NCBI GenBank assembly: GCA_050125095.1
Contig: JASFEA010000003.1
Span: 1 to 55,304 of the forward strand
Source of the DNA: a bacterium
Lineage (GTDB): Bacteria > Arandabacterota > Arandabacteria > Arandabacterales > JALGWA01
Length of the DNA: 55,304 nt
Direction of reading: 5' to 3'
Shown: positions 6,452 to 48,791 of the stretch, piece by piece
How the letters are laid out: every line of letters begins with the position of its first letter
Numbering within the stretch: position 1 is the first letter of the stretch
The notes under the pieces: generated by a model
The model's input: only the letters and a program-made list of their open reading frames with translations
Database searches by the model: none
What the model was told of the DNA's origin: nothing
Translations under genes and position numbers: made by a program

Positions 6452-9385
6452 TCAAGCCCGCATTTCGTTCTGCCGGAGCGGTATCCCCAGCTTCTTCATC
6501 TTGGCGATGAGCGCCGGCCGGCTGATATCTCCCAGGGCTCTTGCCGCGTGCGTCTTGTTCCAGTCATGTTGCCTGAGGGCCGCCAGTATTCGCCTCCTCT
6601 CCACCGTGCGCACTTCGGCCCGCAGCGTCGGCTTATCCGTCCCCTTCCCCAGCCCCGTAATGCACGGGGAGAGGACATGGCGCGACACCGGTTCGCGCGT
6701 CGGAGTCAGGGTTACAGCCCGCTCTATCTCATTCTCGAGCTGGCGTATATTGCCCGGCCAATCATAGCCGGACAGGGCGCTCAGGGCGTCGGTCTCGATG
6801 CTGGTTATCCGTTTCGACATGCGCGCCGAGAACCGCCTCAGGAAGAGCCGGGCCAGGAGGTGTATGTCGGCCTCCCTTTCCCTCAAGGGCGGCAGCGAAA
6901 CCGAAACCACGTTGAGCCTGTAATAGAGGTCCCGTCTCATCCTACCTTCCGCGACTTCCACGTCAAGCCTGCGGTTGGTCGCGCTGACAAAGCGAACGTC
7001 GATACTCCGGGGCGCCGTGTCGCCCACTCTCCTGATCTCGCCGGCCTCCACCGCCCTCAGCATCTTGGCCTGGATTACGGGGCTCACGTCGCCGACTTCG
7101 TCCAGAAAGAAAACACCTCCATGGGCGGCTTCAAGAAGCCCGCGTTTCTCGCCTTTCGCGCCGGTGAACGCGCCTGACCTGTGCCCGAAGAGCTCGCTCT
7201 CCAGGAGATGCTCGGGAAGCGCGGCGCAGTTCTGAGCGACAAACGGGCGGCCCGCCCTTTGGCTCAATATGTGAACCGCTCTGGCCACCAGTTCCTTGCC
7301 GGTTCCCGTCTCCCCTGTGATGAGGACATTAGCCGAGCTTTCGGCGATCCGCGGCAGAGAGAACAGAATGTCTTTCATGTCCGGATCGGCCGATAGTATC
7401 CCGCATATGCAGACGGGAATGCATGCGCGCTCGGCCTTGCCGAGCGCCGATCCCAGAACAGGCAACAGCCGCCCGACTTCGTAGTTGGCTCTGACTACTC
7501 GATCGGCCGCCGAACCGGCGCCTCCGCACACCGGGCGGTCCCAGGTGAGGATGACGAAACCTCTTAAGCGGCCATCCCCGACCGGCAGGGCAAGCAGCGC
7601 CCTGACGTCCGGGGCGGCGAGGTCTCCCCGGGTGGCGGCCACATCACTCATCAATACCGTGCCCGGCATTTCCGGCCCGATGCGGCGGCCGAGTTCCGCG
7701 ACTCTCTCCGGGGTCAGCCCGATGGCGTCCACCACCCTGACGGCCCGGCCGCCCGCCGACTCGACAATCGCCAGACCCGAGATGCCCACTCTCGACGATA
7801 GCATCGCATACGCCTCGCGCGGCGAGGCGGGGACCTCCCGGGACGACTGCGCAAGAACGCCCGCCAGTTCGGCGTCTATTCTCGACCTGACTTCTCTGGC
7901 GCGACAGCCCGCCGTGCCGCCCTCCGCCGCGCGCTCCGCTCTCTCCACCTGCTTGAGGGCCTGTTCATGGCGCCCGGCCCGCAGGTAGGCCTCGGCGAGG
8001 TCGCAGTGCACCGGTGTCATACGCCCGGTGAGGCCGCAGGATATGAATCCTTCCAGCGCCCGCTCGAGATGGCGCGTGCTTCGCTCATGGCCCTGTCCGC
8101 ATGCGGCGCATGCGCGCGCAAGAAGATGGGCCGTAATGGCGGCCTCAGCAACCGCTCCTACGCGCCTGAAGACACGTTCGGCCTTCTCGAGGCCCGCAAT
8201 CCGTCTGGAGCGGTCCGGCTCCGCCAGGGCGATTGTCCTCCGGCATCTCGCCACTTCGAACCTGTCGCCGATGTCGCGCGCTATCTTCATCGCTTCCCGC
8301 GCCACGCGCCCGGCGGCCTCGTTTCGGCCCCGGGCAAGCTCCAGATCGGCCATCCTGGACTTGACCTCGGCTTCGACATCCCTGCACTGGGGAGGAGCCT
8401 CGTCCGCGCATTTCTCCAGAACGGCCCCGGCTTCGTCCAGGTCCCCGGTAAGCGTGAGAAGCTCGCCGAGGGTCTCAAAAGCCACTGCTGTTGCACGCGG
8501 GTCCTCAAGCGACTCGGCTTTCTCTATGGCCTCATTCAGGAGCTCCCGGGCCCGGTCGAAACCGCCGATCAGCATTTCTATCCTCGCGCGCGTAATCACC
8601 CCGAGCACTCTGAGCCGGCTCAGGTTGAGGGACTCCGCTATGCTTATTGCCTCGGAGATCGCCTCCCGCGCCTGCCCTGCTCTACCGGTCTTGTAGGCCG
8701 TATTGGCGAGATTGAGAAGGCGCACGGCCAGGCTCGCGTCGTTCTTCTCCCGCCTGGCCGCTGCCACGGCCTTCTGGAGATAACGCGAAGAGATATTGAA
8801 CCTGCACAGGTTCTTGTATGCTATGCCCAGGTTGTTGAGCGAGTTCCCGAGGCATGTGAGATCGTCGCACATTCGCGCGAAAGTGGCCGCCTGCTCGAAG
8901 CATCTCACCGCTTCCCTCCACTTACAGATCCGGAGGAGCACATGGCCCAGAACCAGGTACACGCGCGCGTCCCCCCGTCTCGCACCCGTGTGCTCTTCGG
9001 CTCTCACCGACGCGCACACTTCGGCGGCCTCACCGTACCTTCCCAGAAGACACAGAAGCGTAGCCTTCTCTGCCAGCAAGTCCCGCCGCCCGGTCGCCTT
9101 GAAGCCCTCCATGACGTCTGAGAGAAAACACAGCGCGTCCTCATGCTTGCTCTGCCTCCTCAGACAGTCGACCACTTTGAGGATGATATCCCTCTTGGCC
9201 GACGCGTTGTCTCCGGCGACCCTGCCGAGCGCCTCTTTGTAATAGGCCAGCGCATCCGATAGATTGCCTACTGATAGGCATAGATCTCCCAGATCAACTT
9301 GTTGCTCAGTTTCTCTATTATCAGTCCCATCCCTGGGAAATTGTCTTCCTTGGATAGAAGTCTCGGGTAGCCTTGGATCACGCAT
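6452..9385 (-). CDS. sigma-54-dependent transcriptional activator with long N-terminal TPR region, GAF-like domain, AAA+ domain and C-terminal Fis-type HTH
   Basis: 977 aa. NVLITGETGTGKELVARAVH (Walker A), ESELFGHRSGAFTGA (GAFTGA loop) and C-terminal NKTHAARALGISRPALIAKMKKLGI (HTH). N-terminal ~450 aa are Ala/Leu/Arg-rich TPR-like repeats. No receiver domain. Confidence 0.85.
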   Translation of the reverse strand: MRDPRLPETSIQGRQFPRDGTDNRETEQQVDLGDLCLSVGNLSDALAYYKEALGRVAGDNASAKRDIILKVVDCLRRQSKHEDALCFLSDVMEGFKATGRRDLLAEKATLLCLLGRYGEAAEVCASVRAEEHTGARRGDARVYLVLGHVLLRICKWREAVRCFEQAATFARMCDDLTCLGNSLNNLGIAYKNLCRFNISSRYLQKAVAAARREKNDASLAVRLLNLANTAYKTGRAGQAREAISEAISIAESLNLSRLRVLGVITRARIEMLIGGFDRARELLNEAIEKAESLEDPRATAVAFETLGELLTLTGDLDEAGAVLEKCADEAPPQCRDVEAEVKSRMADLELARGRNEAAGRVAREAMKIARDIGDRFEVARCRRTIALAEPDRSRRIAGLEKAERVFRRVGAVAEAAITAHLLARACAACGQGHERSTRHLERALEGFISCGLTGRMTPVHCDLAEAYLRAGRHEQALKQVERAERAAEGGTAGCRAREVRSRIDAELAGVLAQSSREVPASPREAYAMLSSRVGISGLAIVESAGGRAVRVVDAIGLTPERVAELGRRIGPEMPGTVLMSDVAATRGDLAAPDVRALLALPVGDGRLRGFVILTWDRPVCGGAGSAADRVVRANYEVGRLLPVLGSALGKAERACIPVCICGILSADPDMKDILFSLPRIAESSANVLITGETGTGKELVARAVHILSQRAGRPFVAQNCAALPEHLLESELFGHRSGAFTGAKGEKRGLLEAAHGGVFFLDEVGDVSPVIQAKMLRAVEAGEIRRVGDTAPRSIDVRFVSATNRRLDVEVAEGRMRRDLYYRLNVVSVSLPPLREREADIHLLARLFLRRFSARMSKRITSIETDALSALSGYDWPGNIRQLENEIERAVTLTPTREPVSRHVLSPCITGLGKGTDKPTLRAEVRTVERRRILAALRQHDWNKTHAARALGDISRPALIAKMKKLGIPLRQNEMRA

Positions 9386-11051: not shown

Positions 11052-11085
11052 ATGAAAACCCCCGCCCCCTCAAGGGGGGCAGGGG
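11051..11085 (-). terminator. rho-independent terminator after the 757-aa secreted protein gene
   Basis: Minus strand CCCCUGCCCCC-(C)UUGA-GGGGGCGGGG (11 bp, one G-U pair) followed by GTTTTCATTT. Confidence 0.7.
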
Positions 11086-11104
11086 TATGCCATCGCCACG
11101 GGGA

Positions 11105-13378
11105 CTACCTTACGAGGATCGCTTTCCTCGTAGTCTGGAAGTCGCGCGATTCAAACCTGTAGAAATAGAGCCCCGCCGGGAGCTTCTCGCCGCGGGAGGT
11201 CCTGCCGTCCCATTCGACGACGTTCTCGCCCTCCGCGGCCAGTCCTTCGTAGAGGTTCGCCACCATCCTGCCGGATATGTCGAACACCCGGATGCGCACG
11301 TAAGACTTGCTCGTGAGCGTGAACATGATGTTGGTCGCGCCCGTGAACGGGTTGGGCGAGTTGGAGAGCCGCAGCACGCGTCCGCTGTCATGCGGCACTC
11401 CGGTGTGTGTGGAGTCCGCGGTGAAGGTCCTGACGTCGCTGTCGCCGTAGAGACCATTGTACTTGTTATGCGTCTGGTACCATCCATGTGCATACCACTT
11501 GACGGTCTCTCCCTGCTTGGCGTAAAGCTGCGCGTCGAACACGGCCGTGGGTACGGGGCAGTTGCCCACTATGCCGTCATCCCTTACATAGCTGCCCTCG
11601 ATGCTGTAGGCCGTAGGGCTGGTCTTGGGATCCGTGCCGTCATGCGTGTAAATGAACCTGATCTCCGACCCGTAGCCTCTCGGCGAAATCGAGGCGTTGA
11701 CCATGAGCGACTGCGAGTCCTCGGCGAGATTGCAGAGCAAGGGGCCCGAAGTGGTGCCGGCCGTGCATGTCTGCACCGCGCTCTCGCCGTAGGAGTTGTC
11801 GCTGCCGCGGGCCTCTATGTACCACTTGATTGTGTTCCCGACATCTGCGGTCAGGTAGGCGCCCAGGCTGTCCGTCGAGTCCGTGGACGCTATGAAGTAG
11901 CCGACCGCCGTGTGGGCCGTGCCGCTGGTCTTGGGATCCGTGCCGTCGGTAGTCCAGATGAAGTCGGCATTCGAGCCGTATCCTGACGGGCCCACCTCCG
12001 CGGTCACGTAGTTGGAATCCGGATTACATGTCAGGTTGTAATAGTCGGCGGTGTCGCCCTGTTCGAAAGTGAAGAAGGTGTCGCTCTGGGCGTAATTGTC
12101 ATGCATGTCCTCGCCGTAGGCGAACCAGTTGACCGTGGTCCCCGTGGGAACCATGTCGAGCACCGCGTAGAATTTGTCGTTGTTGCCCAGCTTCGCATCG
12201 AATGTACCGTCGATGGTCTGCACCGTGCCGCTGGTCATGGGGTCGGAGCCGTCCGTCGTGTAGTCGAACTTCACCCACGAGGTTGTGCCTTCATCGCCCT
12301 CGTAGATCTCGGCCCAGATGGTGCAGTCGGTGGGCGTAGAGCCCTCGTTTCCAACCCACGCCGTGCCGCCCTGAACAAAAGACTGAACGGCGTCGCTCCA
12401 GTCGATGATACCTGTCTTGGAGACGCCCTTGGCGATCCACTTGACCGTCGACTCGTCCGGCGCCGAGGAGAATATGGCGTAGAACGTATCCGTCGTATCG
12501 CCACCCACCCTGCAGGTGTCATATGTGCCTGCCACGAAGGCGCTGTTGGAGTCCGGGTCGGAGCCGTCGACCGTGTAGTAGAATGTCATTTGCGTCGTGG
12601 AGCCGCAGTTGCCGGGCGTGATGTCGGCCAGGCCCGTACAAGTGTGGGCGAAGCTTCTCTCGTTATCGACCGTCGCCGAAGGAGGCGCCGGCTCGACGGG
12701 AAGCGAATTCGGAGCCACATTCTGGCCCGTGTCGCGCGTGACGAAGAAATAAGTCATCGCCTGGGGCGTCGCCCCGATGGGATTGGCCTTGGGGAATGAT
12801 GCGACGACGCTGTTCTGGTCCTCGTCGGTAATCCAGGAGCAGACTGCTATGCTGTCGGCATCGACAACCAGGCTTTCCGGTATGCACAGCTCCGACACCA
12901 GATTGCCGTCCCAGCCCCCGTAACTGCAGGCGTCAGACCAGCCCTGGAACACCCACTGGGCGCCGTCCCAGATGCTGTACTCGTACCAGCCGAAGCCGCC
13001 CGAGCGGTAGTAGATCACGTCGGGAAGGAACTTGCCCGAGAAGGTGACATGGGAATAACCGTCGGAAGTCGCGCCCGAGCCGGGCGTGAGGTCGACGTCG
13101 TAAGCTATGAACCAGTCATAGTCCCCGTCTTCCTGGTCGGCATAAGTACCCTGGATGGCATTGAAGAAAGTCGTGTCGTCCCAGGTGAGATGAAAGTCGG
13201 TTCCACCATCGGTCTCTATGAGCTCATCGCTTTCCCACTCCGTTCCACCGAGCTGCGGCGTAGCGTTTTCGATTACGCCGTCGGTGGTCGTGGGTGTGGT
13301 GTAGGTCAGGGCCGCCGCCAGGGCCGGCATCAGCACGAGGCACAGGCCCGCGATGAGCAACCTGCTTGCTCTTCTCAT
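11105..13378 (-). CDS. secreted multidomain protein: signal peptide, CBM9/DOMON-like N-domain (tentative), four tandem ~100-aa modules, FlgD-Ig/T9SS-type C-terminal domain
   Basis: MRRASRLLIAGLCLVLMPALAAA signal peptide. FHLTWDDTTFF resembles CBM9-like domains. The F-x-Y-T-x-D-G-[ST]-D-P motif occurs four times. C-terminus SPNPFTGATNIMFTL...VEWDGRTSRGEKLPAGLYFYRF...RKAILVR. Confidence 0.8.
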   Translation of the reverse strand: MRRASRLLIAGLCLVLMPALAAALTYTTPTTTDGVIENATPQLGGTEWESDELIETDGGTDFHLTWDDTTFFNAIQGTYADQEDGDYDWFIAYDVDLTPGSGATSDGYSHVTFSGKFLPDVIYYRSGGFGWYEYSIWDGAQWVFQGWSDACSYGGWDGNLVSELCIPESLVVDADSIAVCSWITDEDQNSVVASFPKANPIGATPQAMTYFFVTRDTGQNVAPNSLPVEPAPPSATVDNERSFAHTCTGLADITPGNCGSTTQMTFYYTVDGSDPDSNSAFVAGTYDTCRVGGDTTDTFYAIFSSAPDESTVKWIAKGVSKTGIIDWSDAVQSFVQGGTAWVGNEGSTPTDCTIWAEIYEGDEGTTSWVKFDYTTDGSDPMTSGTVQTIDGTFDAKLGNNDKFYAVLDMVPTGTTVNWFAYGEDMHDNYAQSDTFFTFEQGDTADYYNLTCNPDSNYVTAEVGPSGYGSNADFIWTTDGTDPKTSGTAHTAVGYFIASTDSTDSLGAYLTADVGNTIKWYIEARGSDNSYGESAVQTCTAGTTSGPLLCNLAEDSQSLMVNASISPRGYGSEIRFIYTHDGTDPKTSPTAYSIEGSYVRDDGIVGNCPVPTAVFDAQLYAKQGETVKWYAHGWYQTHNKYNGLYGDSDVRTFTADSTHTGVPHDSGRVLRLSNSPNPFTGATNIMFTLTSKSYVRIRVFDISGRMVANLYEGLAAEGENVVEWDGRTSRGEKLPAGLYFYRFESRDFQTTRKAILVR
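11414..12646 (-). repeat. four tandem protein-level repeats (~102-105 aa period) inside the 757-aa protein
   Basis: FYYTVDGSDP (aa 266), FDYTTDGSDP (371), FIWTTDGTDP (473) and FIYTHDGTDP (575). Each is followed ~40 aa later by [VI][KN]W[IFY]. This resembles chitobiase/hexosaminidase C-terminal-type Ig-like modules. Confidence 0.7.
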
Positions 13379-13552: not shown

Positions 13553-13581
13553 ATTATATCACACAAAAACCGCCAAGTCAA
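13553..13581 (-). promoter_or_regulatory. consensus sigma70 promoter TTGACT-N17-TATAAT with TG extension
   Basis: Minus strand TTGACT (13581-13576), 17-nt spacer ending in TGA, then TATAAT (13558-13553). The -35 overlaps the stop codon of the upstream barrel gene. Predicts a ~165-nt leader before ATG 13378. Confidence 0.6.
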
Positions 13582-14525
13582 TTTGGGCTTGTTCCGGTGA
13601 AGGTCACCCCGAAACGGTGGATGGCGTCCAGGGGGCTCGAGTCCTCGTATGTGTAGTCGAGCCAGAACTTGCCGAACCTGACCCCGAATCCGGCGGTGAG
13701 GCCCCTCAGCCATGAGAACCCGGCCTGGCTGTCGGAGTTCTCGCCCACGCGCCTGCGGTACCCCGCGCGCACCCGGAAGTCTTCAGAGATGAGCCCGATG
13801 ACGCCGCTCCTGACCTCCCTTACGCCCCGCTGGCCGATATAATACGAAACACCGCCCGAAAACGGCGTGCCGCCCGAACCCGCAAGCGAGAAGCCCGCCT
13901 CCAAGCCCGCCGGCGATCCCCCGCCGTCCCCATCCTGGGCTATAATCATATTGCGTCCGACGGCGCTAACGTAGGCCGACAGGCCGCGGGCACCGCCGCC
14001 ATATAAACGAAAAGCCCCGCCGACATCAGCCAGCACTCCTGTCCTGAAATCGGCATCCAGCTGCTCCCTGGCGAACTTGAGGCCTGCACCCGCTGAAAGT
14101 CTATCATGCAGCCTCATGCCCGCCGCAAAACCGCCCATAAGTTCGCCAAAAGTGAATGTCTCGCCTTCTCCGCCCGTGGGGTCGTTGAAGTCGGTCCGCG
14201 TGACCTGTCCGGTTGAGAGATAGGAAATATAGACGTCATATGACCAACCCCGCCCGGTTGGGGCTCCAAACCCGGCCAGGCCGCCTTTGAGGGACGTCAG
14301 GTAGTCCATATATCCTCCAGCCACCTCTACCCGATCGAGATAGCCCAACCCCGCCGGATTCCACCAGAAGTCGTTCAGTTCCGGCACCTCGCTCACATAT
14401 GCCTGCGTGGGCGCCGCCCCGGGCAGCATGCCGATATTGGCGGCTGAGAATGACGAAGACCAGCATGCTGACGGAAAGGCGGCAATCACGAGAATTCCCA
14501 GTATGCGCAAATCTGGATTTCGCAT
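13578..14525 (-). CDS. PorV/PorQ-like outer-membrane beta-barrel protein
   Basis: I start at ATG 14525 (MRNPDLRILGILVIAAFPSA, SD GAGAGG). WWNPAGLGYLDRVEVAGGYMDYL resembles the NPAGLA-containing N-terminal strand region of PorV/PorQ/FadL-like barrels. Alternating Gly/aromatic strands run to the C-terminus. Confidence 0.55.
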   Translation of the reverse strand: MRNPDLRILGILVIAAFPSACWSSSFSAANIGMLPGAAPTQAYVSEVPELNDFWWNPAGLGYLDRVEVAGGYMDYLTSLKGGLAGFGAPTGRGWSYDVYISYLSTGQVTRTDFNDPTGGEGETFTFGELMGGFAAGMRLHDRLSAGAGLKFAREQLDADFRTGVLADVGGAFRLYGGGARGLSAYVSAVGRNMIIAQDGDGGGSPAGLEAGFSLAGSGGTPFSGGVSYYIGQRGVREVRSGVIGLISEDFRVRAGYRRRVGENSDSQAGFSWLRGLTAGFGVRFGKFWLDYTYEDSSPLDAIHRFGVTFTGTSPN

Positions 14526-14674
14526 TGAGCTTACCTCTCGTCCACCCTTTACATATATATAAATCACCGGGCGCACAATACTGTTTTTTGGCCCCCAGCC
14601 CGGAGACCGGCCACGCGGGAAAAATGCACGTCCGGCTACGGGAATTTGCCAGAAACCTGCAACAATTTAATTCG

Positions 14675-14703
14675 TTGACTGGGTTCTATGCATGTGATAT
14701 ACT
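14675..14703 (+). promoter_or_regulatory. near-consensus sigma70 promoter TTGACT-N17-TATACT
   Basis: TTGACT at 14675-14680, 17-nt spacer, TATACT at 14698-14703. Predicts a ~115-nt leader before ATG 14824. Confidence 0.6.
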
Positions 14704-14823
14704 GTATCCAGTAAAATAAGGGGGTGGTGCCGGGCTCATAATATGGCTAAGGTCGACCACGGCTGTGGTCTCTTGCAGTGAGCGCGAGTGTCTTCATAAC
14801 TTCTCATGGAAGGAGAGAAGCCT

Positions 14824-15474
14824 ATGAATAAAGTTATAGCATGCGCAATTGTTATTGCCGTTGCGTTTCCCGCTTCGGCGTTGGCGGGAATGTTGTTTTT
14901 CGGCTGGCAAATGACGGGCACCATAATGGACTCGCCGGCGCAATACAGCGGGTCCCTGACATGGGGTGCAGTGGGGACATTTGGATTCCAGCTCGATGAC
15001 ACCGGCTGGCCGGATCCATCGGGACAGGTGGCAAGGTGGGACTATATATTCAACACCTACTTCGCCGGCAATTACGACAACTCCACACCTGGTGCTTACA
15101 ACTGGAAGGGCGAGATCGACGGCACGTATGAACTCGTTTTCACCGACGCGCCGCCGGATTTCAACGGTTCCGTTTCAGGGGAGTTCCGCCCGGAGATCAC
15201 TCTCAGGGACATCGACGAGGACGGCATTTTCGATCCCTTCGAGAGAGAGGGTGAAAACCTGATCAACGGCAGTTTCACGATTTCCTGCGGAGCGGGCACC
15301 GGTGAGCTCGAATGCCAGCGCGGATCGGGCTCTATGCAGGACAATTACATGTCCTTCCCGTATCTTCCGGCGACGGATACAATGACCAACGGTAGTGGCA
15401 GCGTGATCCTGAGTGCGTGCCCTTCGGCTGCCGAGCAGTCGTCCTGGGGCAGTATCAAGGCGCTATACAGGTAA
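14824..15474 (+). CDS. secreted protein of unknown family, paralog 1 (EF-hand loop, C-terminal SWGSIKALYR)
   Basis: Start at ATG 14824 behind AAGGAGAG. Signal peptide MNKVIACAIVIAVAFPASALA. DDTGWPDP...RWDY; DIDEDGIFDPFE at 15208-15243; ends SSWGSIKALYR. Confidence 0.7.
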   Translation: MNKVIACAIVIAVAFPASALAGMLFFGWQMTGTIMDSPAQYSGSLTWGAVGTFGFQLDDTGWPDPSGQVARWDYIFNTYFAGNYDNSTPGAYNWKGEIDGTYELVFTDAPPDFNGSVSGEFRPEITLRDIDEDGIFDPFEREGENLINGSFTISCGAGTGELECQRGSGSMQDNYMSFPYLPATDTMTNGSGSVILSACPSAAEQSSWGSIKALYR

Positions 15475-15582
15475 CCAGACGACAGCAAAGTCAAAAGACT
15501 CAAGTCAGAAGGGAGGTGTCGCCGCCACCGAATATATATGTCTTGATGTCACTCACTTTAAGGGAATCATGGAGGGTAGGAA

Positions 15583-16227
15583 ATGATGAAAAGGCTAGTG
15601 TTGGTTTTCGCCGCTTGTCTGCTTATTGCAGGTGTTGCTCATGCTGAGCGGACCGTGAACTTCTTCTCCCAGGGTACCGGCAATATGGTCGCGGATGTCG
15701 GCAACGTGATTTACGGCGGCCAGATCGTGGGCGGTGATCTCGCTCCCGGTATCTGGTACATCGATATTGATGACACAGGTTGGCCCGTTGACCCGGGCCC
15801 GAGATGGGACTACCTCTGGACCACGTTCTATATTTATTCGCCGGGCACGCCCAGCGTGTGGACGGCTACCTTCGACGCGCCTCTTCTGGCGTCCCGTCCG
15901 GTTCTCTATATTGAGCATACGGGCGTGGGCAGCATGTCAGGCGTCGCGGATATGCGTTTCCAGGTCACTGACTGGGACGACGATGGCGTGCTTGATCCGG
16001 ACGAGTGCGACGGCGACGGTCTCACCGGTATAGTCATCATTATTGAGGATGGAACGGGCGATTACGCTGATCAGTGCGGTGATGGCACCTATCAGGGTGG
16101 TTACACCAGAGACTGCGAAACCTGGGACGATTTCGTCCAGTTCCAGTGGAGTATCGACCTGTACGAGTGCGGCATGGCTACCGAGCCGGCCAGTTGGGGA
16201 GCCATTAAGTCTCTCTACAACCAGTAG
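15583..16227 (+). CDS. secreted protein of unknown family, paralog 2 (EF-hand loop, C-terminal SWGAIKSLYNQ)
   Basis: SD GGAGGGTAGG. Signal peptide MMKRLVLVFAACLLIAGVAHA. DDTGWPVDPGPRWDY; DWDDDGVLDPDE at 15970-16005; ends ASWGAIKSLYNQ. Confidence 0.75.
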   Translation: MMKRLVLVFAACLLIAGVAHAERTVNFFSQGTGNMVADVGNVIYGGQIVGGDLAPGIWYIDIDDTGWPVDPGPRWDYLWTTFYIYSPGTPSVWTATFDAPLLASRPVLYIEHTGVGSMSGVADMRFQVTDWDDDGVLDPDECDGDGLTGIVIIIEDGTGDYADQCGDGTYQGGYTRDCETWDDFVQFQWSIDLYECGMATEPASWGAIKSLYNQ

Positions 16228-16404
16228 AATTCAGACTGAGCCGACAGAGCCAGCGAGAGCTGTTTATGCAGTTGCCGGGACGCTAGTGACGCTCGTTGCA
16301 GGCGAGTATTGAATTACAGAATTAAATAAAGATCCGCACTTGACAACAGTGAGACGGCAACGGGGTTTGCTTTGTCGGCGGACTCCAACAGGAGAAGTGC
16401 GGGA

Positions 16405-19400
16405 ATGTCAAGGATAAGAAGCGGGGATATTATAACGGGGGTGGTGGTGGCCCTCATGGCCATCGCCGTCCCCCTGTCTTCATCTACTGCGGCAGAGACC
16501 ACTTCCGTGAGCCTCAGTATCGAAGCGTCCTCCACACAGGTCGGCGAATCCGGGACTATCTGCTTCCCGGTACCGGAATGCGCCGGAATAGAGGCCGACT
16601 TCACCCTGGACGGACTCCCTCTGAGTATGAGCCTCGTAAAGACGGCCTATATAAGGGACCAGCGTATCGCCGTTTTCAGGGCGAATGACGGCATCCCTGA
16701 GACCGGCGAGATCCAGGTAACGCTGAGTTTCGACGGGGCCGTCGGTCCGGCGCTTGTTGACGCCGGGCCGCTAACGCGCACGTGCTCGGAAGTGCTGACG
16801 GGCTACGGCAGCGCATTCGTGCCCGGGCCGCCTTCGGGCCCCGGTTCCGTGACGAGATGCCAGTCGCTCGCCGACTGCGCCAATGCCGGTGCGGACATCC
16901 TTCTCATAATGGGGCACGCCATCCGCCTCAGCGCTTATGTCGATTCGATCGGAAGACACTGGGCCGAGACCATGGGACTAAATGTCGCGATTATAGACGT
17001 TGACCGGATTTCGGCTTACAGCCCCGTCATGGTCCGCGATTTCATCAAAGCCCTTTACAATACGGGTTCCGCAGAACATTTCGGCGACGGGCACCTGGGC
17101 TTCGTGATTCTCCTGGGTGACGCATATGAAGACGACAATGTGACCCGCATGGTCCCTGAATACGACGGCTACGGGGGAGACGCGGAGGCCTCGGACCACT
17201 TCTACGCATGCATAAAGGGCGACGACGAGTTCGAGGACATAATGATAGGGCGCATCCCCGTCGGAAACGAGCTCGAGCTGGCCTATTACTACGCCAAGCT
17301 CACGTCCTACACCCCCCTGCCGGCAGAGGACTGGACCAGGTCCTTCCTCTTCGCGGGCGGCTGCTTCTTTGCTTTGAAGCAGGACTATGTGAATCTGTTC
17401 GACAGCCTGGCGGTCTACCTGCCGCCGGACGTGCATGACTCGCGTTATTACAGGTACGACTTCCCACAGACCGACCCCGGGGACGCCCAGGCCATACAGG
17501 CCATGGTCGACTCGCTTGAGGCGGGCCGCCTGTTCGTCATGTACTGCGGCCACGCCGACCGCTGGAACTGGGGCGGCAGATTCGAGAGGGTCTTCGGAAG
17601 CGGCCGCATTCCGGATCTGGCGAATGCCGACCGGCTCCCGATAATCCTCTCTATCGCATGCTACAGCGGGTGGTTCGACAACACGGAATACACTTTCTCG
17701 GACGGCGGGGTCGACTGCTTCGCCGAGCGCCTGCTTACGAATCCCGGCGGCGGCGCGGTGGCATGCCTGGCATCGTCCAGGGATACCGGCGGCGGGGCAT
17801 CGACCGAGTTCACGTCCCAGATCATAAGAGCGGCCTATGTCAACGGGTCCAGTTATCTGGGCGAGCTCATGCTCGAGGCCAAGACGAGGCATCTCTGCCG
17901 CCTCGGGAATATCGAGTACGTAAGGCAGTTCAACCTGTTCGGAGACCCATGCCTCAACTTCGTTCTCAACCAGGAACCTGTCAGCCAGCCCGATCTCGTG
18001 CTGAGGCCTTACCACGTGAAAGTATCCCCCGAGTTCATCAAGAACGGGGAAACGGTAACGGTGACGGCGGAAGTCTGGAACGCCGGCGGCGAGAGCGTTG
18101 CGGAATTCGACGTTGCCATCTATGACGGCGACCCGGACGCCGGCGGCGAACTCGTGGGGGTCGAGACCCTCGCCGACTTCTGGGGCTGGGAGAAGCGCTG
18201 GGTGGAATTCGAAATTCATGGCGCCGAGGGCGGGGCCCTGGACATACACCTGGTGGCCGACCCGGAAGAGATGATTCCGGAGGTGGATGAGGACAACAAC
18301 ACGACATCCGTCGAGACCTACGTTTACCCGTGCCAGGCCGGCTTCCCGGTAAAGCTCGGCGAAGACGTCAAGGGGCAGGTGATGGCCGACCTGGACGCCG
18401 ACGAGGACCTGGACATATTGGTCACATCGGGCGGGACCCTGGCTCAGGCCCTCACGTCTGACGGCAACACCATATGGCTCAGGGAAAACCTGGGCCAGAA
18501 GGAGTGGTTCGAGAACATAGAGCCGGCGGCATGCGACCTCAACGGCGACGGCGCGACGGAGGTCATCCTCACTACGAAGAGCGCGGTACTGGTGCTTGAG
18601 GGAGCGACCGGCAACACCATCTGGCAGCGTTTCACCGACAACGCCAGCGTGTCCCCCGTGGTGGCAGACCTCGACCATGACGGGAGCTTCGAAGTGCTGC
18701 TGGCCACCTACAACTTCATGGCCGCTAAGATGTACGCCTTCAACACGCAGGGCGCCTACAGGTGGATCTATTCCCTGCCCGGGTCATTCGGGGCCATTAC
18801 CAGTCTTGTCTGCGGGGACTTTGATCAGGACGGTTACCTGGAGGTCATGATGGCCGGAGGCGGCGAGACGGGCAATCTCAGATGCTTCAGCTGTTCCGAT
18901 GACCCGGATGAACAGCCTCATTCCCTCTGGACTTCCCAACTCACCTCTCAGGGTGTCGCCTGCGCGGTCGGCGCCGACATACAGAGGGACGGCGACCTGG
19001 AGATAATAGCCGGCAGCGGGAACAACGTGTACGTCGTGGAGGCGATGACCGGGCAGATCATCGAAACGGTGGAGCTTCCCCACCCGGCTACCAGCCTGTC
19101 AATAGCCGACACAGACAATGATGAGGTCCTCGAGATTCTCTGCACATCGGAAATGGGCTACCTTTACAGGATTGATGACCTGCAGGTTGTGCTGGAGAAA
19201 GACCTGGGAGGCACCCCGGTCGAGGCCCCCATAACGGCCGATCTCGACGGGGATGGGACCACAGAGATCATATGCAGCCTGCGCGAGGGTAAGGTCTGCA
19301 TAATAAGCCCCACGGGCGGCGATTTCATGGCCCCGGTGCCGATAAGGAACATGTGCTACTCGACGCCCGTCGCCGGCGATATAGACATGGACGGGAGGAT

Positions 19401-20835
19401 CGAGGTATTTGCCGGATCGGTCGACTCCGTGCTTTTCGCGCTCGACCTCGGCATTCAGGGCGGCAGAAGCGAGTGGCCCTGCGCGGGGGCGTCCGGCATC
19501 AGGATGGGGATCTACGCCCAGCCCTTCACCGGCATGTTCACCGATGACTTCGTGCTATACGGACGGGTGGACATCGTGGGCGACGTAGTGATCGATGAGG
19601 GAAGCAAGCTCATCATTGAAAGAGGCACCGACATCCGATTGGTCTCCCATGACATTTACGGTGGCGGGGCATCATCACAACTGTGCGAGGTGTTCGTGAG
19701 GGGAGACCTCGTATGCAGGGGAACAAGCCTCCATCCGGTGACCATGACCGGGCTCGCCTATCCCGACGAACCCGGCACGTGGATGGGCATAATGGTGGAG
19801 GATGAGGGCACTGCGACTATATCAAGGACCTCCATTAGAAACGCGGTCACCGGAATCGACTGCCGCAATGACGACATCTATCTGTCCGAGTCGGAGATAT
19901 CGAACTGCATCATGGCCGTCAAGGTGGACGCCACGTCACCCGTGCTTGATAACAACGAGCTTTACAACAACACATATGCCGTTTCGGCCAACGGCGGCAG
20001 TCCCGTCCTTGTCGGGAACAAGATGCATCACAACTCCTACGCGGGCGTGGTGATGTCGGACGGCTGCACCGCGGTCATGGACAAGAACGTCATAAGCAAT
20101 ACCACCAGCGGAAGCGGCCTGGCCTGCTACAACTCCAATCCGACCATACTTCCGGGCAACAAGTTCGAGTACAATGCCTTGAACGGCATCTACCTGGGCA
20201 CAAGCTCCCCCGTCATCGACTCATGTTACGTGGCTTTCAACGGCGACTGCGGCATCAAGGTGGCCATGTCCTCATCACCCGTGATAACAAAGACCTCAAT
20301 TGTCGGAAACAGGTTCGGCTTCGGCATATATAACAACTCCAATCCCGTGCTCGGGGACGACGGGGCGGGGCTCGGCGGGCTCAATGACATTCGGGACAAT
20401 GAGATGCTCGCCATAAAGAACTACACGGCGAATACGATCATGGCCCGGACGAACTGGTGGGGCACCGACACCCCCGAACCGGGGCTATTCATGGGGCCCG
20501 TGGACTATTCGCTGTGGCTTACGACGGCGCCCGCCGGCGTGGATGACATCGACCTTGTTGATAATCTGATGTTCAGTCTCTATCCGAACCCGTTCGTGCA
20601 CCAGGTCAATCTGAGTTTCTCGATTTCTTCCCGCGATGTCCCCCTCGAGGTCAGCATCTACAACGTCCGGGGGAAGCTGGTTAAGAAGGTACTCTCGGAG
20701 GACCACCCGGGTCTGGTCCAGGTCGCCTGGGACGGCACGGACTCGCGCGGCCGCAGGGTGGCGAGCGGGACATATCTGGTCGCCGTCAAGTCGCGTTCGC
20801 ATTGCGTGACGCGAAAGGTGGTACTTCTCCGTTAG
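16405..20835 (+). CDS. peptidase C25 (gingipain/PorU-type cysteine peptidase) fused to CARDB, FG-GAP repeats, right-handed beta-helix and FlgD-Ig/T9SS-type C-terminal domain
   Basis: Start at ATG 16405 (AGGAGAAG SD). C25 core FVILLGD, MIGRIPV, FVMYCGHADRWNW (His codon 17548-17550), LPIILSIACYSGWF (Cys codon 17659-17661), CFAERLL and NLFGDPCL. CARDB at ~17983-18321. Beta-helix at ~19549-20466. C-terminus YPNPFVHQVNLSF...VAWDGTDSRGRRVASGTYLV...RKVVLLR. Confidence 0.85.
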   Translation: MSRIRSGDIITGVVVALMAIAVPLSSSTAAETTSVSLSIEASSTQVGESGTICFPVPECAGIEADFTLDGLPLSMSLVKTAYIRDQRIAVFRANDGIPETGEIQVTLSFDGAVGPALVDAGPLTRTCSEVLTGYGSAFVPGPPSGPGSVTRCQSLADCANAGADILLIMGHAIRLSAYVDSIGRHWAETMGLNVAIIDVDRISAYSPVMVRDFIKALYNTGSAEHFGDGHLGFVILLGDAYEDDNVTRMVPEYDGYGGDAEASDHFYACIKGDDEFEDIMIGRIPVGNELELAYYYAKLTSYTPLPAEDWTRSFLFAGGCFFALKQDYVNLFDSLAVYLPPDVHDSRYYRYDFPQTDPGDAQAIQAMVDSLEAGRLFVMYCGHADRWNWGGRFERVFGSGRIPDLANADRLPIILSIACYSGWFDNTEYTFSDGGVDCFAERLLTNPGGGAVACLASSRDTGGGASTEFTSQIIRAAYVNGSSYLGELMLEAKTRHLCRLGNIEYVRQFNLFGDPCLNFVLNQEPVSQPDLVLRPYHVKVSPEFIKNGETVTVTAEVWNAGGESVAEFDVAIYDGDPDAGGELVGVETLADFWGWEKRWVEFEIHGAEGGALDIHLVADPEEMIPEVDEDNNTTSVETYVYPCQAGFPVKLGEDVKGQVMADLDADEDLDILVTSGGTLAQALTSDGNTIWLRENLGQKEWFENIEPAACDLNGDGATEVILTTKSAVLVLEGATGNTIWQRFTDNASVSPVVADLDHDGSFEVLLATYNFMAAKMYAFNTQGAYRWIYSLPGSFGAITSLVCGDFDQDGYLEVMMAGGGETGNLRCFSCSDDPDEQPHSLWTSQLTSQGVACAVGADIQRDGDLEIIAGSGNNVYVVEAMTGQIIETVELPHPATSLSIADTDNDEVLEILCTSEMGYLYRIDDLQVVLEKDLGGTPVEAPITADLDGDGTTEIICSLREGKVCIISPTGGDFMAPVPIRNMCYSTPVAGDIDMDGRIEVFAGSVDSVLFALDLGIQGGRSEWPCAGASGIRMGIYAQPFTGMFTDDFVLYGRVDIVGDVVIDEGSKLIIERGTDIRLVSHDIYGGGASSQLCEVFVRGDLVCRGTSLHPVTMTGLAYPDEPGTWMGIMVEDEGTATISRTSIRNAVTGIDCRNDDIYLSESEISNCIMAVKVDATSPVLDNNELYNNTYAVSANGGSPVLVGNKMHHNSYAGVVMSDGCTAVMDKNVISNTTSGSGLACYNSNPTILPGNKFEYNALNGIYLGTSSPVIDSCYVAFNGDCGIKVAMSSSPVITKTSIVGNRFGFGIYNNSNPVLGDDGAGLGGLNDIRDNEMLAIKNYTANTIMARTNWWGTDTPEPGLFMGPVDYSLWLTTAPAGVDDIDLVDNLMFSLYPNPFVHQVNLSFSISSRDVPLEVSIYNVRGKLVKKVLSEDHPGLVQVAWDGTDSRGRRVASGTYLVAVKSRSHCVTRKVVLLR
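18334..19461 (+). repeat. eight FG-GAP/VCBS-type repeats (protein level) in the C25 protein
   Basis: DLDADEDLDILV, DLNGDGATEVIL, DLDHDGSFEVLL, DFDQDGYLEVMM, DIQRDGDLEIIA, DTDNDEVLEILC, DLDGDGTTEIIC and DIDMDGRIEVFA, spaced 44-53 aa apart. Confidence 0.75.
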
Positions 20836-22991: not shown

Positions 22992-25952
22992 CTAGAAATC
23001 TCCCCCGAGCGTGAAGTGCACTCGCTTTTGCGCCGGGCCGCCGAAGTTCGTGGCCCAGGCGAAATCGAGCCTCATGAGAAGGTAAGAGAAGACCATCCTG
23101 AAGCCGAAACCGTAGGCGGCGTGGAAGTCGGCTAGCTGCTGGGAGCCCTCCACGGTGTGCATCCAGCGGACGTCGTTGAACTGCCCGTTCCAGGCGCTTC
23201 CTATGTCGAAGAAGAACACGCCGCGGATGCCTCCGAGCATCAGCGGAATCGGGCCGCGCGTCACCAGCCGGTCGATGAATGGATAGCGGAGCTCCAAGCT
23301 GGCGAAGGCCATGTTATTGCCCTCGAACTGGAAATCGGGATAGCCCCTGAGCGTGTATCCTCCGCCGAGCGAGAAGACCACGGGATCCAGGCCCTGGCTC
23401 GTTGCCGCGCTCATCCGGAACGCCAGCGATGTGCTGGAGGTGAACCGGAAGTACTTGCGGAAGTCCACATAGCCCGAGTTGTAGTTGAGGTCGCTTCCGA
23501 GCACATCCACTATGCTTTTGTCGAAGCTCAGGAAATACCTCGTGCCGCCGACGGGCCCCATCATCCCCCAAATCGTGTTGTCCTTCACGTACGACAGGCG
23601 GACCGAATAGAGATCGTATGAATTGCGCGACGCGATTATGGGCGCCGGCAGGTACTCGGAACCGTCCTCAAAGATCTCGCGGTCTATTCTCTGAGCCGTG
23701 AACTCAAGGTCTACTCGCCTGAACTTATCGAGCGGGTAGGACAGCGCAAGCAGCCCGCCGTAGTTCCGCTCGGAGAAGAAGCGGTCCACCCTTCCCTCGC
23801 CGATGGGTATCCCCATGGTCGAACGGCTCGCGTAGTAGTAGTTCTTGAAGTGAAAGACGCCGAACCCGTAATTTATCCTGTGCTTGAGGTAGTTATATAT
23901 CCCCAGGAAGTCAGTTTCCTGGAAGGAAGAGAAGAACTCCGTGGCAATCGAGATCCTGTGATTGCCGAGAACGTCGCTCACGGACAGCTGGGTGAAACCA
24001 CCGAGGCCGTATGCCGTGCTGTACTGGAAGGACCCGCCGACGTAATCGGGCGTGAAGTTGATGCGGTACGGCTTTACCTCATAGTCGAGAGCTTGTTCGA
24101 TCAGCGCGCTGTCCGCGATTCCCGGCGCCATGTCGATAACCGGCGGCGCAAACGCTATTGTGCTGCGCTCCTCCAGCCAGGGCGCTTCCCACGTCCAGTC
24201 TTCTTCCTTCTGCTTCCGTATTATGCCGAGGTTCTCGGCCGGATTCTTGATCTGGAAGACGTCCCAGCCCGCTTCATTGAAGCAGCTGAAGGCGATGCGG
24301 TTACCCTCTCGCGACCATGACGGGGTGAAGATGCCGCCCAGGATGTTGGTTATCTGTGCAGTAGTCGAGTCACCGAAGTCATAGATGAAGAGGTTATAGG
24401 ACCCGTCCCTGTCCGAAACGAACATGAGCCTGTCGTTCTCCTCCCCCCAGACCGGCGAGAGGTCCTCGCACTCGCAGTAGGTGACCCGCTCGGTCACGCC
24501 GTGGTCTATATCGAGCACGTAGATGTCGCGCGTCGGCTTGACCCAGGGCCCCACGCGGGAGATCTCGCACAGAGAATCCACGCAGCCGGGGGCTATGGCC
24601 GAGAACGCGATCCTGCTGGCGTCGGCCGAGAACGCTATGGCCGAGTACTCCAACGCGCCGGAGTGTATCTCCTCCACCTCGCCCGACTCGATGTCCAGCG
24701 AATATATCCCGGCCGCCCCCCTCCGGGTTCCCACGAAGGCGATGGAACTGCCTTCCGGCGACCAGGCCGGATAGCTCATGGTGTCGAATTCGGGCTGGAA
24801 TCTCTCGAGGTTCTTACCACCGGGAGCGTCTATGATGTACAGGGCGTCGCCCTTGCCCCGCTTACTCACGAAGGCTATCCGTCTGCTGTCCGGGGACCAG
24901 GCGAAACTGCTCCTCAGGCTATGGAACGACTCGAAGTCCTGGGATCTCTGTCCTTTGACGAGGCGCCGGATCTCCCTGCCGTCGATCGCCGACATCAGGT
25001 ATATGTCGTAATAGCCGCTCTTGTCTGAAAGATAGACGATCAGCTGGCCATCGGGCGAAATGGACGGCATGCCGTTTACGAAGGAGTCCCCCTTGCGGTG
25101 GTCCGTGAGCCTCTGGGCCACTTCATCCGGCTCGTCCTTTGAGGAGATATCCGGCCAGTACCGCTCGCGAAGATACTCGGACCACGATTCCGTGAGCCCC
25201 TGAGTGTCCACGCCGATTGTGTTCATGAGCGCCGCGTCTATATTCCTGGTCGAGGCCACCGCCTGCAGGATGTCGGGGATCTTCTCGGGGCCGTACTTGT
25301 CGGCGATGTACCTTATAACGGACTGGCCCTGTTTATAGGCCAGGTACCCGTACACGTCGTAGTACAGGGGGAAGTAGTAGCCGCTTATGGCCGCGTCCCG
25401 CATAACCATCTCGGCCTCCGTGTCCCAGGCCGAAGCCTCGAACTCGGGTATCCCCTCCATGAACCACAGGGGCAGCCGGAACAGGTACTGGCGCGTGAAT
25501 ATGGACTCCAGCAGGCCTCCGTATACTATGTCGAAAGTGAAAACATGCGTGAGCTCGTGATATACAAGATGCCTCAGGTCTTCATAGGAACCGTTGAAAT
25601 GTATGACCACGCGGTTCTTGAAAATCTCCGTGAACCCCTCCGTCCCCTCCTCAAGAAGAGACATCGTCACGTTCGTCTGCTGGAACTCGTGGTGGGAGGC
25701 GTATACGATTATGGGGGTCCGCTTCCCCAGCTCGTGTTTGAGATGCGAGCTGAGCGAATCGTATGAGGCGTCGGCAATGACCGCAACGCGCCGCGCAAGG
25801 TCCTCTTCGCCCTCGTAATAGTAAACGTCGAAGTACTTGGAGGCAAGTACCGCCCAGTCGAATACCCTGTACTGCACCTTGTTCTTGCCGAACCCCGCGG
25901 CAAGCGACGGGATGAGAAGGAGCAGCAACATTGTAAGAGCAATCCGCCTCAT
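22992..25952 (-). CDS. outer-membrane chimera: MA-clan HExxH peptidase-like domain + TolB-type PD40 beta-propeller + Omp85 (surface antigen D15) beta-barrel
   Basis: 986 aa, signal peptide MRRIALTMLLLLLIPSLAAG. YHELTHVF (25545-25559) followed by WFMEGIPEF. PD40-like ISPDGQLIVYLSDKSGYYDIYLM, WSPDSRRIAFVS and WSPEGSSIAFVG. C-terminal barrel ends ...VHFTLGGDF (terminal Phe). Confidence 0.8.
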   Translation of the reverse strand: MRRIALTMLLLLLIPSLAAGFGKNKVQYRVFDWAVLASKYFDVYYYEGEEDLARRVAVIADASYDSLSSHLKHELGKRTPIIVYASHHEFQQTNVTMSLLEEGTEGFTEIFKNRVVIHFNGSYEDLRHLVYHELTHVFTFDIVYGGLLESIFTRQYLFRLPLWFMEGIPEFEASAWDTEAEMVMRDAAISGYYFPLYYDVYGYLAYKQGQSVIRYIADKYGPEKIPDILQAVASTRNIDAALMNTIGVDTQGLTESWSEYLRERYWPDISSKDEPDEVAQRLTDHRKGDSFVNGMPSISPDGQLIVYLSDKSGYYDIYLMSAIDGREIRRLVKGQRSQDFESFHSLRSSFAWSPDSRRIAFVSKRGKGDALYIIDAPGGKNLERFQPEFDTMSYPAWSPEGSSIAFVGTRRGAAGIYSLDIESGEVEEIHSGALEYSAIAFSADASRIAFSAIAPGCVDSLCEISRVGPWVKPTRDIYVLDIDHGVTERVTYCECEDLSPVWGEENDRLMFVSDRDGSYNLFIYDFGDSTTAQITNILGGIFTPSWSREGNRIAFSCFNEAGWDVFQIKNPAENLGIIRKQKEEDWTWEAPWLEERSTIAFAPPVIDMAPGIADSALIEQALDYEVKPYRINFTPDYVGGSFQYSTAYGLGGFTQLSVSDVLGNHRISIATEFFSSFQETDFLGIYNYLKHRINYGFGVFHFKNYYYASRSTMGIPIGEGRVDRFFSERNYGGLLALSYPLDKFRRVDLEFTAQRIDREIFEDGSEYLPAPIIASRNSYDLYSVRLSYVKDNTIWGMMGPVGGTRYFLSFDKSIVDVLGSDLNYNSGYVDFRKYFRFTSSTSLAFRMSAATSQGLDPVVFSLGGGYTLRGYPDFQFEGNNMAFASLELRYPFIDRLVTRGPIPLMLGGIRGVFFFDIGSAWNGQFNDVRWMHTVEGSQQLADFHAAYGFGFRMVFSYLLMRLDFAWATNFGGPAQKRVHFTLGGDF

Positions 25953-45722: not shown

Positions 45723-45812
45723 CCCCGGTGGCAAAGCAAACCCCGGTGGCGAAGCAGCCTGTGATTGCGGAGCAATCGTCCCTTGCGAAGCAATCCTGAG
45801 GATTGCAGGCGG
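45723..45812. repeat. degenerate 18-bp tandem repeat (about 5 units) between rnpB 3' end and the relA start
   Basis: Plus-strand units CCCCGGTGGCAAAGCAAA / CCCCGGTGGCGAAGCAGC / CTGTGATTGCGGAGCAAT / CGTCCCTTGCGAAGCAAT / CCTGAGGATTGCAGGCGG. On the minus strand they contain short palindromes TTGC-TTC-GCAA, ATTGC-TCC-GCAAT and GCAATCC-TCA-GGATTGC. Confidence 0.8.
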
Positions 45813-45813
45813 G

Positions 45814-46190
45814 CGGTGGAGCAGGTAATAAGCCGAGTTCTGTTCCCGGGAGCCCTACCGCAAGTCCCCCCCGGGACGATGGTCATTAATCTAAGGATGC
45901 GGATTGCCCCGCACCTCATGCGGCCCAACCCGGGAATTATAGCGAAGCGGGCAGCTTCTCTTCCCCTATTTGGCCTTGCTCCAGGTGGGGTTTACCTAGC
46001 TGCCCCCGTCACCGGGGGCACTGGTGAGCTCTTACCTCACCGTTTCACCCTTACCGGCCGAAGCCGGCGGTATGCTTTCTGTGGCACTATCCTTGGGATC
46101 GCTCCCACTGGGGATTACCCAGCACCCTGCCCTGTGGAGCTCGGACTTTCCTCACACGGCGTAGCCGTGCGCGACCACCTAACCTGCTCC
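45814..46190 (-). ncRNA. rnpB: RNase P RNA, bacterial type A
   Basis: Minus strand: P1 GGAGCAGGT (46190-46182) pairs with ACCTGCTCC (45826-45818). P3 hairpin CACGGC-TAC-GCCGTG. Universally conserved GAGGAAAGTCCGAGCTCCACAGGGCAGGGTGC, GGTAAGGGTGAAA, AGCAAGGCCAAATAGGGG and ACAGAACTCGGCTTAT. Ends are approximate (+/-5 nt). Confidence 0.88.
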
Positions 46191-48688: not shown

Positions 48689-48765
48689 TGGTGGGCGATA
48701 CTGGACTTGAACCAGTGACCTCCCGCGTGTGAGGCGGGCGCTCTAAACCACTGAGCTAATCGCCC
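48689..48765 (-). tRNA. tRNA-Val (anticodon CAC), CCA encoded
   Basis: GGGCGATTAGCTCAGTGGTTTAGAGCGCCCGCCTCACACGCGGGAGGTCACTGGTTCAAGTCCAGTATCGCCCACCA folds as a cloverleaf by hand. Anticodon arm is CCCGC-CTCACAC-GCGGG. Confidence 0.9.
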
Positions 48766-48791
48766 TAATACAAGAGTATAGAAAGCGAAAA

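Follow-up and report, generated by a model that had tools for sequence, protein, structure and literature searches.

A candidate surface-protein locus of Candidatus Eisenbacteria built from type IX secretion-like parts and a putative short C-terminal sorting tag

Surface attachment by the T9SS (type IX secretion system) has, to our knowledge, been worked out almost wholly in Bacteroidota, in which porU and porV are adjacent genes. In the model of the Porphyromonas gingivalis attachment complex, PorU is held by PorV and PorZ by PorQ (PMC8754138). T9SS C-terminal domains (CTDs) shrink from seven strands to three in the 'short' CTDs of Prevotella, and are still modelled as binding PorV in the same way (PMC11969387). 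Here we analysed a 55,304-nucleotide stretch (contig JASFEA010000003.1 of assembly GCA_050125095.1, positions 1 to 55,304 of the forward strand; referred to below as the window), a chromosomal stretch of ~60% GC from a diderm bacterium. The window contains a five-gene locus that encodes an outer-membrane β-barrel, a 757-residue CTD protein, two small secreted paralogs (par1 and par2) and a 1476-residue C25-family cysteine peptidase. The locus is organised as two divergent units, with the barrel and 757-residue genes on the minus strand and par1, par2 and the C25 gene on the plus strand. We read it, with a probability of about 40%, as a surface-protein locus of one lineage, Candidatus Eisenbacteria, assembled from type IX secretion parts and a candidate short sorting tag at the C-termini of par1 and par2, and propose a mechanism for it below.

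As in the PorU-PorV-PorQ-PorZ system, a barrel of the PorV/PorQ superfamily and a C25-family peptidase with its own type A CTD are encoded in a cluster, and the second conserved CTD protein resembles PorZ in having carbohydrate-binding-like repeats. Unlike PorU, the peptidase of the locus belongs to a non-orthologous group and contains FG-GAP, β-helix and CARDB domains beyond the coverage of the PorU model. A single barrel of 315 residues, sub-threshold for the family model, is found in place of PorV and PorQ, two extra tail-tagged proteins are present, and the host phylum lies outside Bacteroidota. The small outer-membrane barrel gene next to a large CTD-protein gene also recalls SprF/PorP and SprB, but the barrel here is matched by PorV/PorQ models and the CTDs are type A, not type B. 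An initial annotation of the window had singled out the barrel, the C25 peptidase, a second CTD-bearing cargo and two intervening paralogs, all four of which lie where it had placed them, and had suggested a compact attachment module with a PorU-type peptidase. Part of this interpretation is supported, namely a module that is T9SS-like; a PorU-type protease is not.

The gene order (757-residue cargo gene and barrel gene pointing one way; par1, par2 and the C25 gene the other) recurs in each related locus that is long enough to reveal it (L006, L007, L009, L012, L013, L016, L018, L019, L020, L023 and L025), and persists down to 31–44% barrel identity. The related loci all come from uncultivated metagenome-assembled genomes (MAGs); those with a named phylum belong to Candidatus Eisenbacteria, and Candidatus Eisenbacteria MAGs are also the source of the closest named homologues. 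The C25 gene lies 1.9 kb from the barrel gene on the opposite strand, an arrangement that is likewise conserved. Where the flanks are broken, by a GatCAB insertion past the C25 gene (L012) or by a flippase near MntP (L011–L013), the core order is intact, as it is in L023 with ~3 kb of extra sequence after the C25 gene. The par1-par2 pair has been tandemly duplicated in place in two loci (L019:9204-12414 and L022:1-2848), giving four paralog genes just upstream of C25.

The barrel gene (13578–14525, minus strand) encodes a protein of 315 residues that is modelled by AlphaFold 2 (AF2) as a 14-strand β-barrel (pLDDT 78). The NCBIfam model PorV_fam (NF033709) scores 73.8 bits, below its cut-off of 90, and the equivalog models score 59.4 (PorQ; cut-off 220) and 20 (PorV; cut-off 250). 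Pfam gave zero matches, FadL/Toluene_X included, and none was obtained with the PorP/SprF models of NCBIfam. PorV from the Flavobacterium T9SS translocon (6h3i_F) is the sole PDB sequence match of a profile of 26 barrel homologues (E 8.9e-22) and also the best Foldseek match of the model (E 3e-12, TMq 0.65), followed by FadL and TodX (~5e-9, TMq ~0.53). Both kinds of search favour the PorV/PorQ-like assignment proposed initially over FadL; identity as FadL or another transporter is ruled out by the absence of a Pfam FadL match together with PorV as the only PDB sequence match and the best fold. Given a family score below the cut-off but PorV as the sole PDB match, the barrel is placed by sequence and model as a divergent subfamily within the PorV/PorQ superfamily, about the size of PorQ. 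It is the fastest-evolving gene of the locus, with 31–44% identity at the deepest divergence. The closest barrel homologue outside the lineage, P0085 (L146:1-10963), has 28% identity, and its gene overlaps by 4 nt the end of the gene for a 7150-residue FG-GAP protein. This overlap is compatible with translational coupling and suggests a pairing of PorV/Q-like barrels with individual giant proteins of the surface.

The C25 protein (16405–20835, plus strand; 1476 residues) is multidomain and carries its own CTD. The catalytic core (residues 176–518; 16930–17958) matches Pfam Peptidase_C25 with 180 bits and contains the dyad motifs CGHA (residues 381–384 with His383; nt 17545–17556) and IACYSG (residues 417–422 with Cys419; nt 17653–17670), which fall on the catalytic His and Cys motifs in an alignment to RgpB (1cvr). 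The core is followed by a CARDB immunoglobulin (Ig)-like domain (residues 528–635; 17986–18309), recognised by Pfam and by a PDB match to 2kut over the same stretch, an FG-GAP β-propeller region (approximately residues 654–967; 18364–19305; FG-GAP_3, 86 bits, five stretches) and a Pfam right-handed β-helix/NosD-like region (residues 1128–1313; 19786–20343). A type A/FlgD-Ig CTD closes the protein (residues 1392–1473; 20578–20823), passing the TIGR04183 cut-off of 23 with 31.5 bits, scoring 42 bits with FlgD_ig and ending in TRKVVLLR. The C25 protein shows 48–51% identity at the deepest divergence.

The initial annotation had likened this peptidase to PorU. Its C25 His/Cys dyad context and CTD hold, whereas its assignment as PorU-type does not. 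The PorU model NF033707 gives 132.6 bits against a cut-off of 420, with only the catalytic core aligned (model positions 415–780); four true PorUs score 560–1270 bits end to end, and generic non-PorU C25 peptidases score 107–290. With a hidden Markov model (HMM) of the Eisenbacterial C25 core, non-PorU C25 proteins score at least as high as PorUs. In a bootstrapped neighbour-joining tree of 24 C25 cores, the PorU clade (100%) is nested in a 100% cluster of PorU and PorU-related sequences, and the window protein forms a separate 100% clade with its orthologues and the homologue P0109. Orthology to PorU is thus rejected by score, architecture and tree. The phylogeny does not place the protein with ordinary gingipains either, its clade being separate from gingipain-like sequences too. 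Like RgpB and Kgp, it has the C25 fold, aligned His/Cys motifs, a type A CTD and possibly a propeptide remnant; unlike them, it is without the Pfam domains Propeptide_C25 (PF08126) and Peptidase_C25_C (PF03785), which are absent at E up to 0.1. A weak 50-column match to the end of the gingipain propeptide (hhalign probability 75%) suggests such a remnant at the sequence level, and overall similarity to RgpB amounts to only 25.6 bits. A partial orthologue with 57% identity, P0106 (HEC83090.1), is labelled 'Firmicutes/Bacillota bacterium' at NCBI; its contig is probably mis-binned, because a cluster mate sits on a 203-kb contig with the whole locus (L006).

The 757-residue protein (11105–13378, minus strand) consists of a signal peptide, an N-terminal domain of ~230 residues without known family, CHB_HEX_C/Fn3_assoc-like repeats (F.Y..DG.DP) and a type A/FlgD-Ig CTD (residues 675–754; 11117–11356). 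The CTD passes TIGR04183 with 33.5 bits (cut-off 23) and scores 34.4 with FlgD_ig, in agreement with its initial description as a second CTD cargo. At the deepest divergence sampled the protein retains 59–62% identity, compared with 57–60% for the neighbouring UvrD, 42–51% for par2 and 34–43% for par1. Conservation at the level of UvrD makes it look more like a component than a casual cargo, and a helper role analogous to that of PorZ may be envisaged.

Between the barrel and C25 genes lie par1 (14806–15474, plus strand), a small Sec-exported protein of 216–222 residues, and par2 (15583–16227, plus strand; 214 residues). The start of par1 is most likely the second ATG, at 14824, because a GGAG lies 8 nt upstream of it. 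The two proteins are true paralogs, as initially annotated (30% identity, E 4e-18), and have cleavable-looking signal peptides and conserved cysteines. Each has a 12-residue EF-hand-like loop, DIDEDGIFDPFE in par1 (nt 15208–15243) and DWDDDGVLDPDE in par2 (nt 15970–16005), with the canonical EF-hand-type pattern D-x-D-x-D-G-x-hydrophobic-D-x-x-E inside an otherwise all-β protein. The AF2 model of par2 (pLDDT 83) is all-β; the tail follows a disulfide-capable Cys and a short linker and is unstructured (pLDDT <50). Foldseek searches of the paralog fold against the PDB gave no match (best E 0.056, TM at most 0.25), and the sequence profile gave weak PDB matches confined to the EF-hand loops. Identity as split-off gingipain propeptides or in-trans inhibitors was rejected (hhalign probability 1.7%; no Foldseek match to the PDB prodomain). 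An exhaustive profile search of 1.84 billion representatives returned only 73 clusters of the family, mostly stand-alone proteins of 200–250 residues, and the family members that carry the tail are named only 'hypothetical protein' in the databases searched. In a more distant lineage (L024:8255-10663), two tandem paralog-family genes follow the gene for a 253-residue FG-GAP protein, and an M1 peptidase with a T9SS CTD is encoded 2.6 kb upstream.

The C-terminal tail is the most unusual feature of the locus and was absent from the initial annotation. par1 ends in SSWGSIKALYR (WGSIKALY at nt 15445–15468) and par2 in SWGAIKSLYNQ (WGAIKSLY at nt 16195–16218), both of the form [ST]WGx[IV]Kx[LM][YF]x-COOH. 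The family motif [ST]W[GS]x[IV]Kx[LM][YF] is present in 80 of the 86 paralog-family members of 190–260 residues, 1–2 residues from the C-terminus in 79 and 4 residues from the end in one. A scan of a metagenome collection for DNA encoding W-G-x-[IVM]-K-A-L-Y-R-stop yielded at least 120 loci holding 126 such open reading frames (ORFs). By our own estimate the pattern arises by chance at ~2e-12 per position at 64% GC; this rate, and the conservation of residues outside the search pattern, led us to reject a chance match. Among the matches listed, T/S occupies position −10 in 95% and P position −15 in 58%, with V/T at −14, E at −13 in 42% and often Cys near −20. In the same matches the DNA downstream shows no conservation and variation is seen at third codon positions, in the Arg codon families used and in the stop codons, which indicates selection on the peptide and not on a DNA repeat, and excludes a DNA repeat, a terminator or a mobile-element end.

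The tail is modular. After it was stripped, the ORFs of at least 100 residues formed at least 59 unrelated BLAST clusters, and the paralog family accounts for only one tail ORF among the matches listed. There, a signal-peptide-like N-terminus was found in 82 of 88 complete tail ORFs, with a median size of ~225 residues. No Pfam or NCBIfam model is common to the 105 tail proteins among these matches; the scattered domains are those of typical surface cargo, including β-helix, NHL, CHRD, lamin-tail (LTD), carbohydrate-binding modules, choice-of-anchor J, DNRLRE and Cleaved_Adhesin. No model covering the motif was found in Pfam-A (2025) or NCBIfam release 20, and our searches of the literature turned up neither a description of it nor anything tying Eisenbacteria to T9SS. 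The tail is a short, widespread and general modular tag that is apparently undescribed.

Like T9SS CTDs, PEP-CTERM, LPXTG and GlyGly-CTERM, the tail forms the very end of Sec-exported proteins on the C-terminal side and is a module shared by many unrelated families, and, as with other C-terminal signals, it occurs on domains that elsewhere bear other anchors (choice-of-anchor J, LTD, NHL). Unlike T9SS CTDs, it has ~10 conserved residues, or ~20 with the linker, and at that length cannot form the Ig-like CTD fold. It also differs from PEP-CTERM, LPXTG and GlyGly-CTERM in that the protein ends 1–2 residues past the motif; having neither a transmembrane helix nor a basic tail, it is not a tripartite signal of the PEP-CTERM/LPXTG type. 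We know of no processing enzyme for it.

Several observations connect the tail with CTD proteins. L019 has an additional gene (L019:6630-7502, minus strand) located between those of the barrel and the cargo; its secreted product is homologous to the N-terminal domain of the cargo (35% identity, E 1e-25) but has SSWGGIKALYR at its end in place of the repeats and CTD. Conversely, P0164 (1919 residues) has a paralog-like N-terminal domain (E 2e-13) and a FlgD_ig CTD at its end. In these two cases, as judged by sequence comparison, tail and CTD are swapped on homologous domains. The tail-ending ORFs of the Eisenbacterial loci and of the window all lie inside the five-gene locus. The matches listed include 25 loci of at least 8 kb, three of which (L040, L066 and L091) encode a CTD-bearing C25 peptidase no more than 3 kb from a tail gene. 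In L040 and L066 the C25 genes resemble those of gingipains and encode Propeptide_C25 and C25_C domains, and the tail protein of L091 carries a Cleaved_Adhesin domain. These few cases of C25-tail proximity are suggestive. The commonest domains among the 150 nearest-neighbour ORFs of tail genes in the listed matches are FlgD_ig (9) and Por_Secre_tail (5).

These features can be brought together in a mechanism in which a T9SS encoded elsewhere would export the two CTD proteins, which would then stay on the surface through binding of their CTDs to the barrel, by analogy with PorU on PorV and PorZ on PorQ. At the surface, the C-terminal signals of further exported proteins might be what the C25 domain acts on. 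The tail would serve as a short alternative to a CTD that brings the paralogs to the same complex, where they could dock or undergo cleavage within the flexible linker that precedes the tail. An extension of this scheme, which we regard as quite unlikely, is that the tail, written more fully as C-x(3-4)-[TVS]-P-[VT]-E-x-x-[TS]-W-G-x-[IV]-K-A-L-Y-R-COOH, represents a kind of C-terminal sorting signal not described before, the equivalent of the T9SS CTD in a single strand or a peptide, which would be used by Eisenbacteria and by further uncultivated bacteria of high GC content from soil and sediment, and which the barrel-plus-C25 locus would receive and process.

A number of results count against the proposal of a T9SS-like surface locus with a sorting tag. 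The protease is not a PorU orthologue and the barrel scores below the PorV_fam cut-off. As the initial annotation had remarked, no other T9SS core gene is present in the window, among the large ORFs scanned against Pfam. A close relative with 83% par2 identity keeps only ~80 bp of the barrel 3′ end between the cargo gene and par1 (L017:6560-7100), either because the gene was truly deleted or through a fault in MAG assembly. The gene order is conserved within one lineage only, in which much of the flank is syntenic too. Linkage of the barrel, paralog and C25 genes, which the initial annotation had thought might be conserved, holds in each related locus with enough sequence to judge but does not extend beyond the lineage: in the more distant L014 and L024, neither a barrel gene nor a C25 gene accompanies the paralog family in the available sequence, which for L024 reaches 10 kb to either side and for L014 10 kb downstream but only 1.7 kb upstream. 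Among the metagenome matches listed, no barrel homologue was found beside a tail gene, and the remaining neighbours of tail genes spread over 217 Pfam families with no fixed partner. The neighbour counts indicate that tail genes are scattered through genomes that also use FlgD-Ig-type CTDs, without a fixed partner gene. The ends of the local CTDs, T-R-K-[VAL]-[VI]-L-[LV]-R, and of the tail, [IV]-K-A-L-Y-R, share a mere K-hydrophobic-R pattern, which is only a resemblance. Cleavage of the tail and its contact with the barrel or the protease are hypothetical parts of the proposal.

Other explanations share part of this evidence. The 1476-residue protein could be an ordinary degradative or adhesive T9SS cargo with its own anchor, the barrel a dedicated partner of this protein or of the 757-residue one, and the paralogs accessory, with no sortase-like step; PorP/SprF-type barrels pair with single large adhesins. 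We consider this somewhat unlikely. A C25 core outside the PorU clade, adhesin-like CARDB, FG-GAP and β-helix domains, the weak trace of a gingipain-type propeptide, the overlap of the P0085 gene with that of a giant FG-GAP protein and the gingipain-like C25 genes near tail genes in L040 and L066 all fit it. It is harder to reconcile with a cargo protein conserved at housekeeping level, with the identity retained by the C25 protein and the strict gene order, or with a barrel matched by PorV/PorQ and not PorP/SprF models, and it leaves unexplained why the Eisenbacterial tail genes seen all sit in the locus. Because the flanks are often conserved too, common descent explains part of the conserved order, and one may ask whether the order is inherited and not functional, with synteny along the whole LarA-to-BamA region of a narrow lineage and with barrel, protease, cargo and paralogs each working on their own. 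The sigma-54 activator, MntP, UvrD, Omp85 and TamB genes are indeed kept in most loci, the cargo gene has promoter-like and terminator-like sites of its own (see below), the paralogs outside the lineage are unlinked to C25 or barrel, and L017 is without a barrel. Inheritance as the full explanation is nevertheless improbable: the core is intact where insertions break the flanks (L012, L013, L023), the duplicated paralog pairs stay in the locus (L019, L022), the extra tail-bearing gene of L019 arose between barrel and cargo, and all five products are envelope or surface proteins with T9SS-type features.

We give similarly little credence to the idea that the tail is not a sorting tag and has no T9SS link, acting as a peptide for docking or oligomerisation, as a motif for quality control or retention in the periplasm, or as a β-signal-like element for an Omp85 protein. 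The tail misfits the Omp85 β-signal consensus, Po-x-G-x-x-Hy-x-Hy, because it has a Lys at a hydrophobic position, and its swaps with CTDs on homologous domains and its presence on classic surface-cargo domains speak for sorting. Its length of only ~10–20 residues, the absence of a transmembrane segment, its lack of structure in the AF2 model and the lack of a fixed neighbour of tail genes would be expected of such a peptide. An Omp85 connection is raised by L053, where an orthologue (810 bits) of a window protein that combines Omp85, MA-type peptidase and PD40 parts is encoded directly upstream of a tail gene; in the window this gene is 6.7 kb from the paralogs. The Omp85-tricorn protein was rejected as a tail partner, L053 being the only true adjacent orthologue and the L134 match covering the PD40 part only.

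On the reading that we prefer, of T9SS-like parts joined to a candidate sorting tag, the locus suggests that another phylum of the wider group has put together a module of similar kind with a C25 peptidase of a different lineage and just one PorV/Q-type barrel, itself divergent; the comparison amounts to a natural experiment in what the attachment step cannot do without. Of greater weight, perhaps, is the tail. Uncultivated bacteria of soil, sediment and hypersaline habitats export a large set of proteins that bear it. Should it act in sorting or docking, the surface and secreted proteomes of these lineages would be predictable from sequence, a dedicated HMM for annotation would be possible and the 10-residue tag would be directly testable.

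Consensus scans placed putative control sites around the five genes. A sigma-70-like promoter for the 757-residue gene (13553–13581, minus strand; TTGACT-17-TATAAT, 11/12) begins inside the barrel stop codon (13578–13580), and a terminator-like hairpin (11058–11086, minus strand; 12 pairs, 10 of them GC, and a T-run) lies just past the stop of the 757-residue gene. The par1, par2 and C25 genes are on the same strand downstream of one promoter-like site (14675–14703, plus strand; TTGACT-17-TATACT, extended TG), the hexamers of which are also found in the relative L017. The interval from this site to the par1 start (14704–14823, plus strand; ~100–120 nt) contains blocks conserved in L017, for example AGGGGGTG.TGCC.GGCTCA and GACCACG...GTGGT. 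A known RNA element in this leader was rejected, as the Rfam matches in the window are confined to RNase P RNA class A (305.6 bits) and two tRNA genes, located at 45814–46190 and 48692–48868, both on the minus strand; a mechanically listed ORF at 45765–46571 (plus strand) overlaps RNase P and is spurious. A sigma-54 activator of 977 residues with a long tetratricopeptide repeat (TPR) N-terminal region (6452–9385, minus strand) is kept upstream of the locus in relatives. Control by this activator was rejected; sigma-54 motifs in the window do not exceed the chance count, and the intergenic regions of the module have zero matches.

The locus is surrounded in the window by housekeeping genes, which include purine genes, LarA, the TPR/sigma-54 activator, MntP, UvrD, TamB, BamA and RseP as well as Dxr, CdsA, UppS, Frr, RpsB, RelA, RpoD, DnaG and MutS2. 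The unusual Omp85-family protein (22992–25952, minus strand; 986 residues) has an N-terminal MA-type peptidase and PD40/tricorn propellers followed by a barrel. Its gene adjoins those of TamB (25969–29862) and BamA (29865–31763) and is kept in all related loci.

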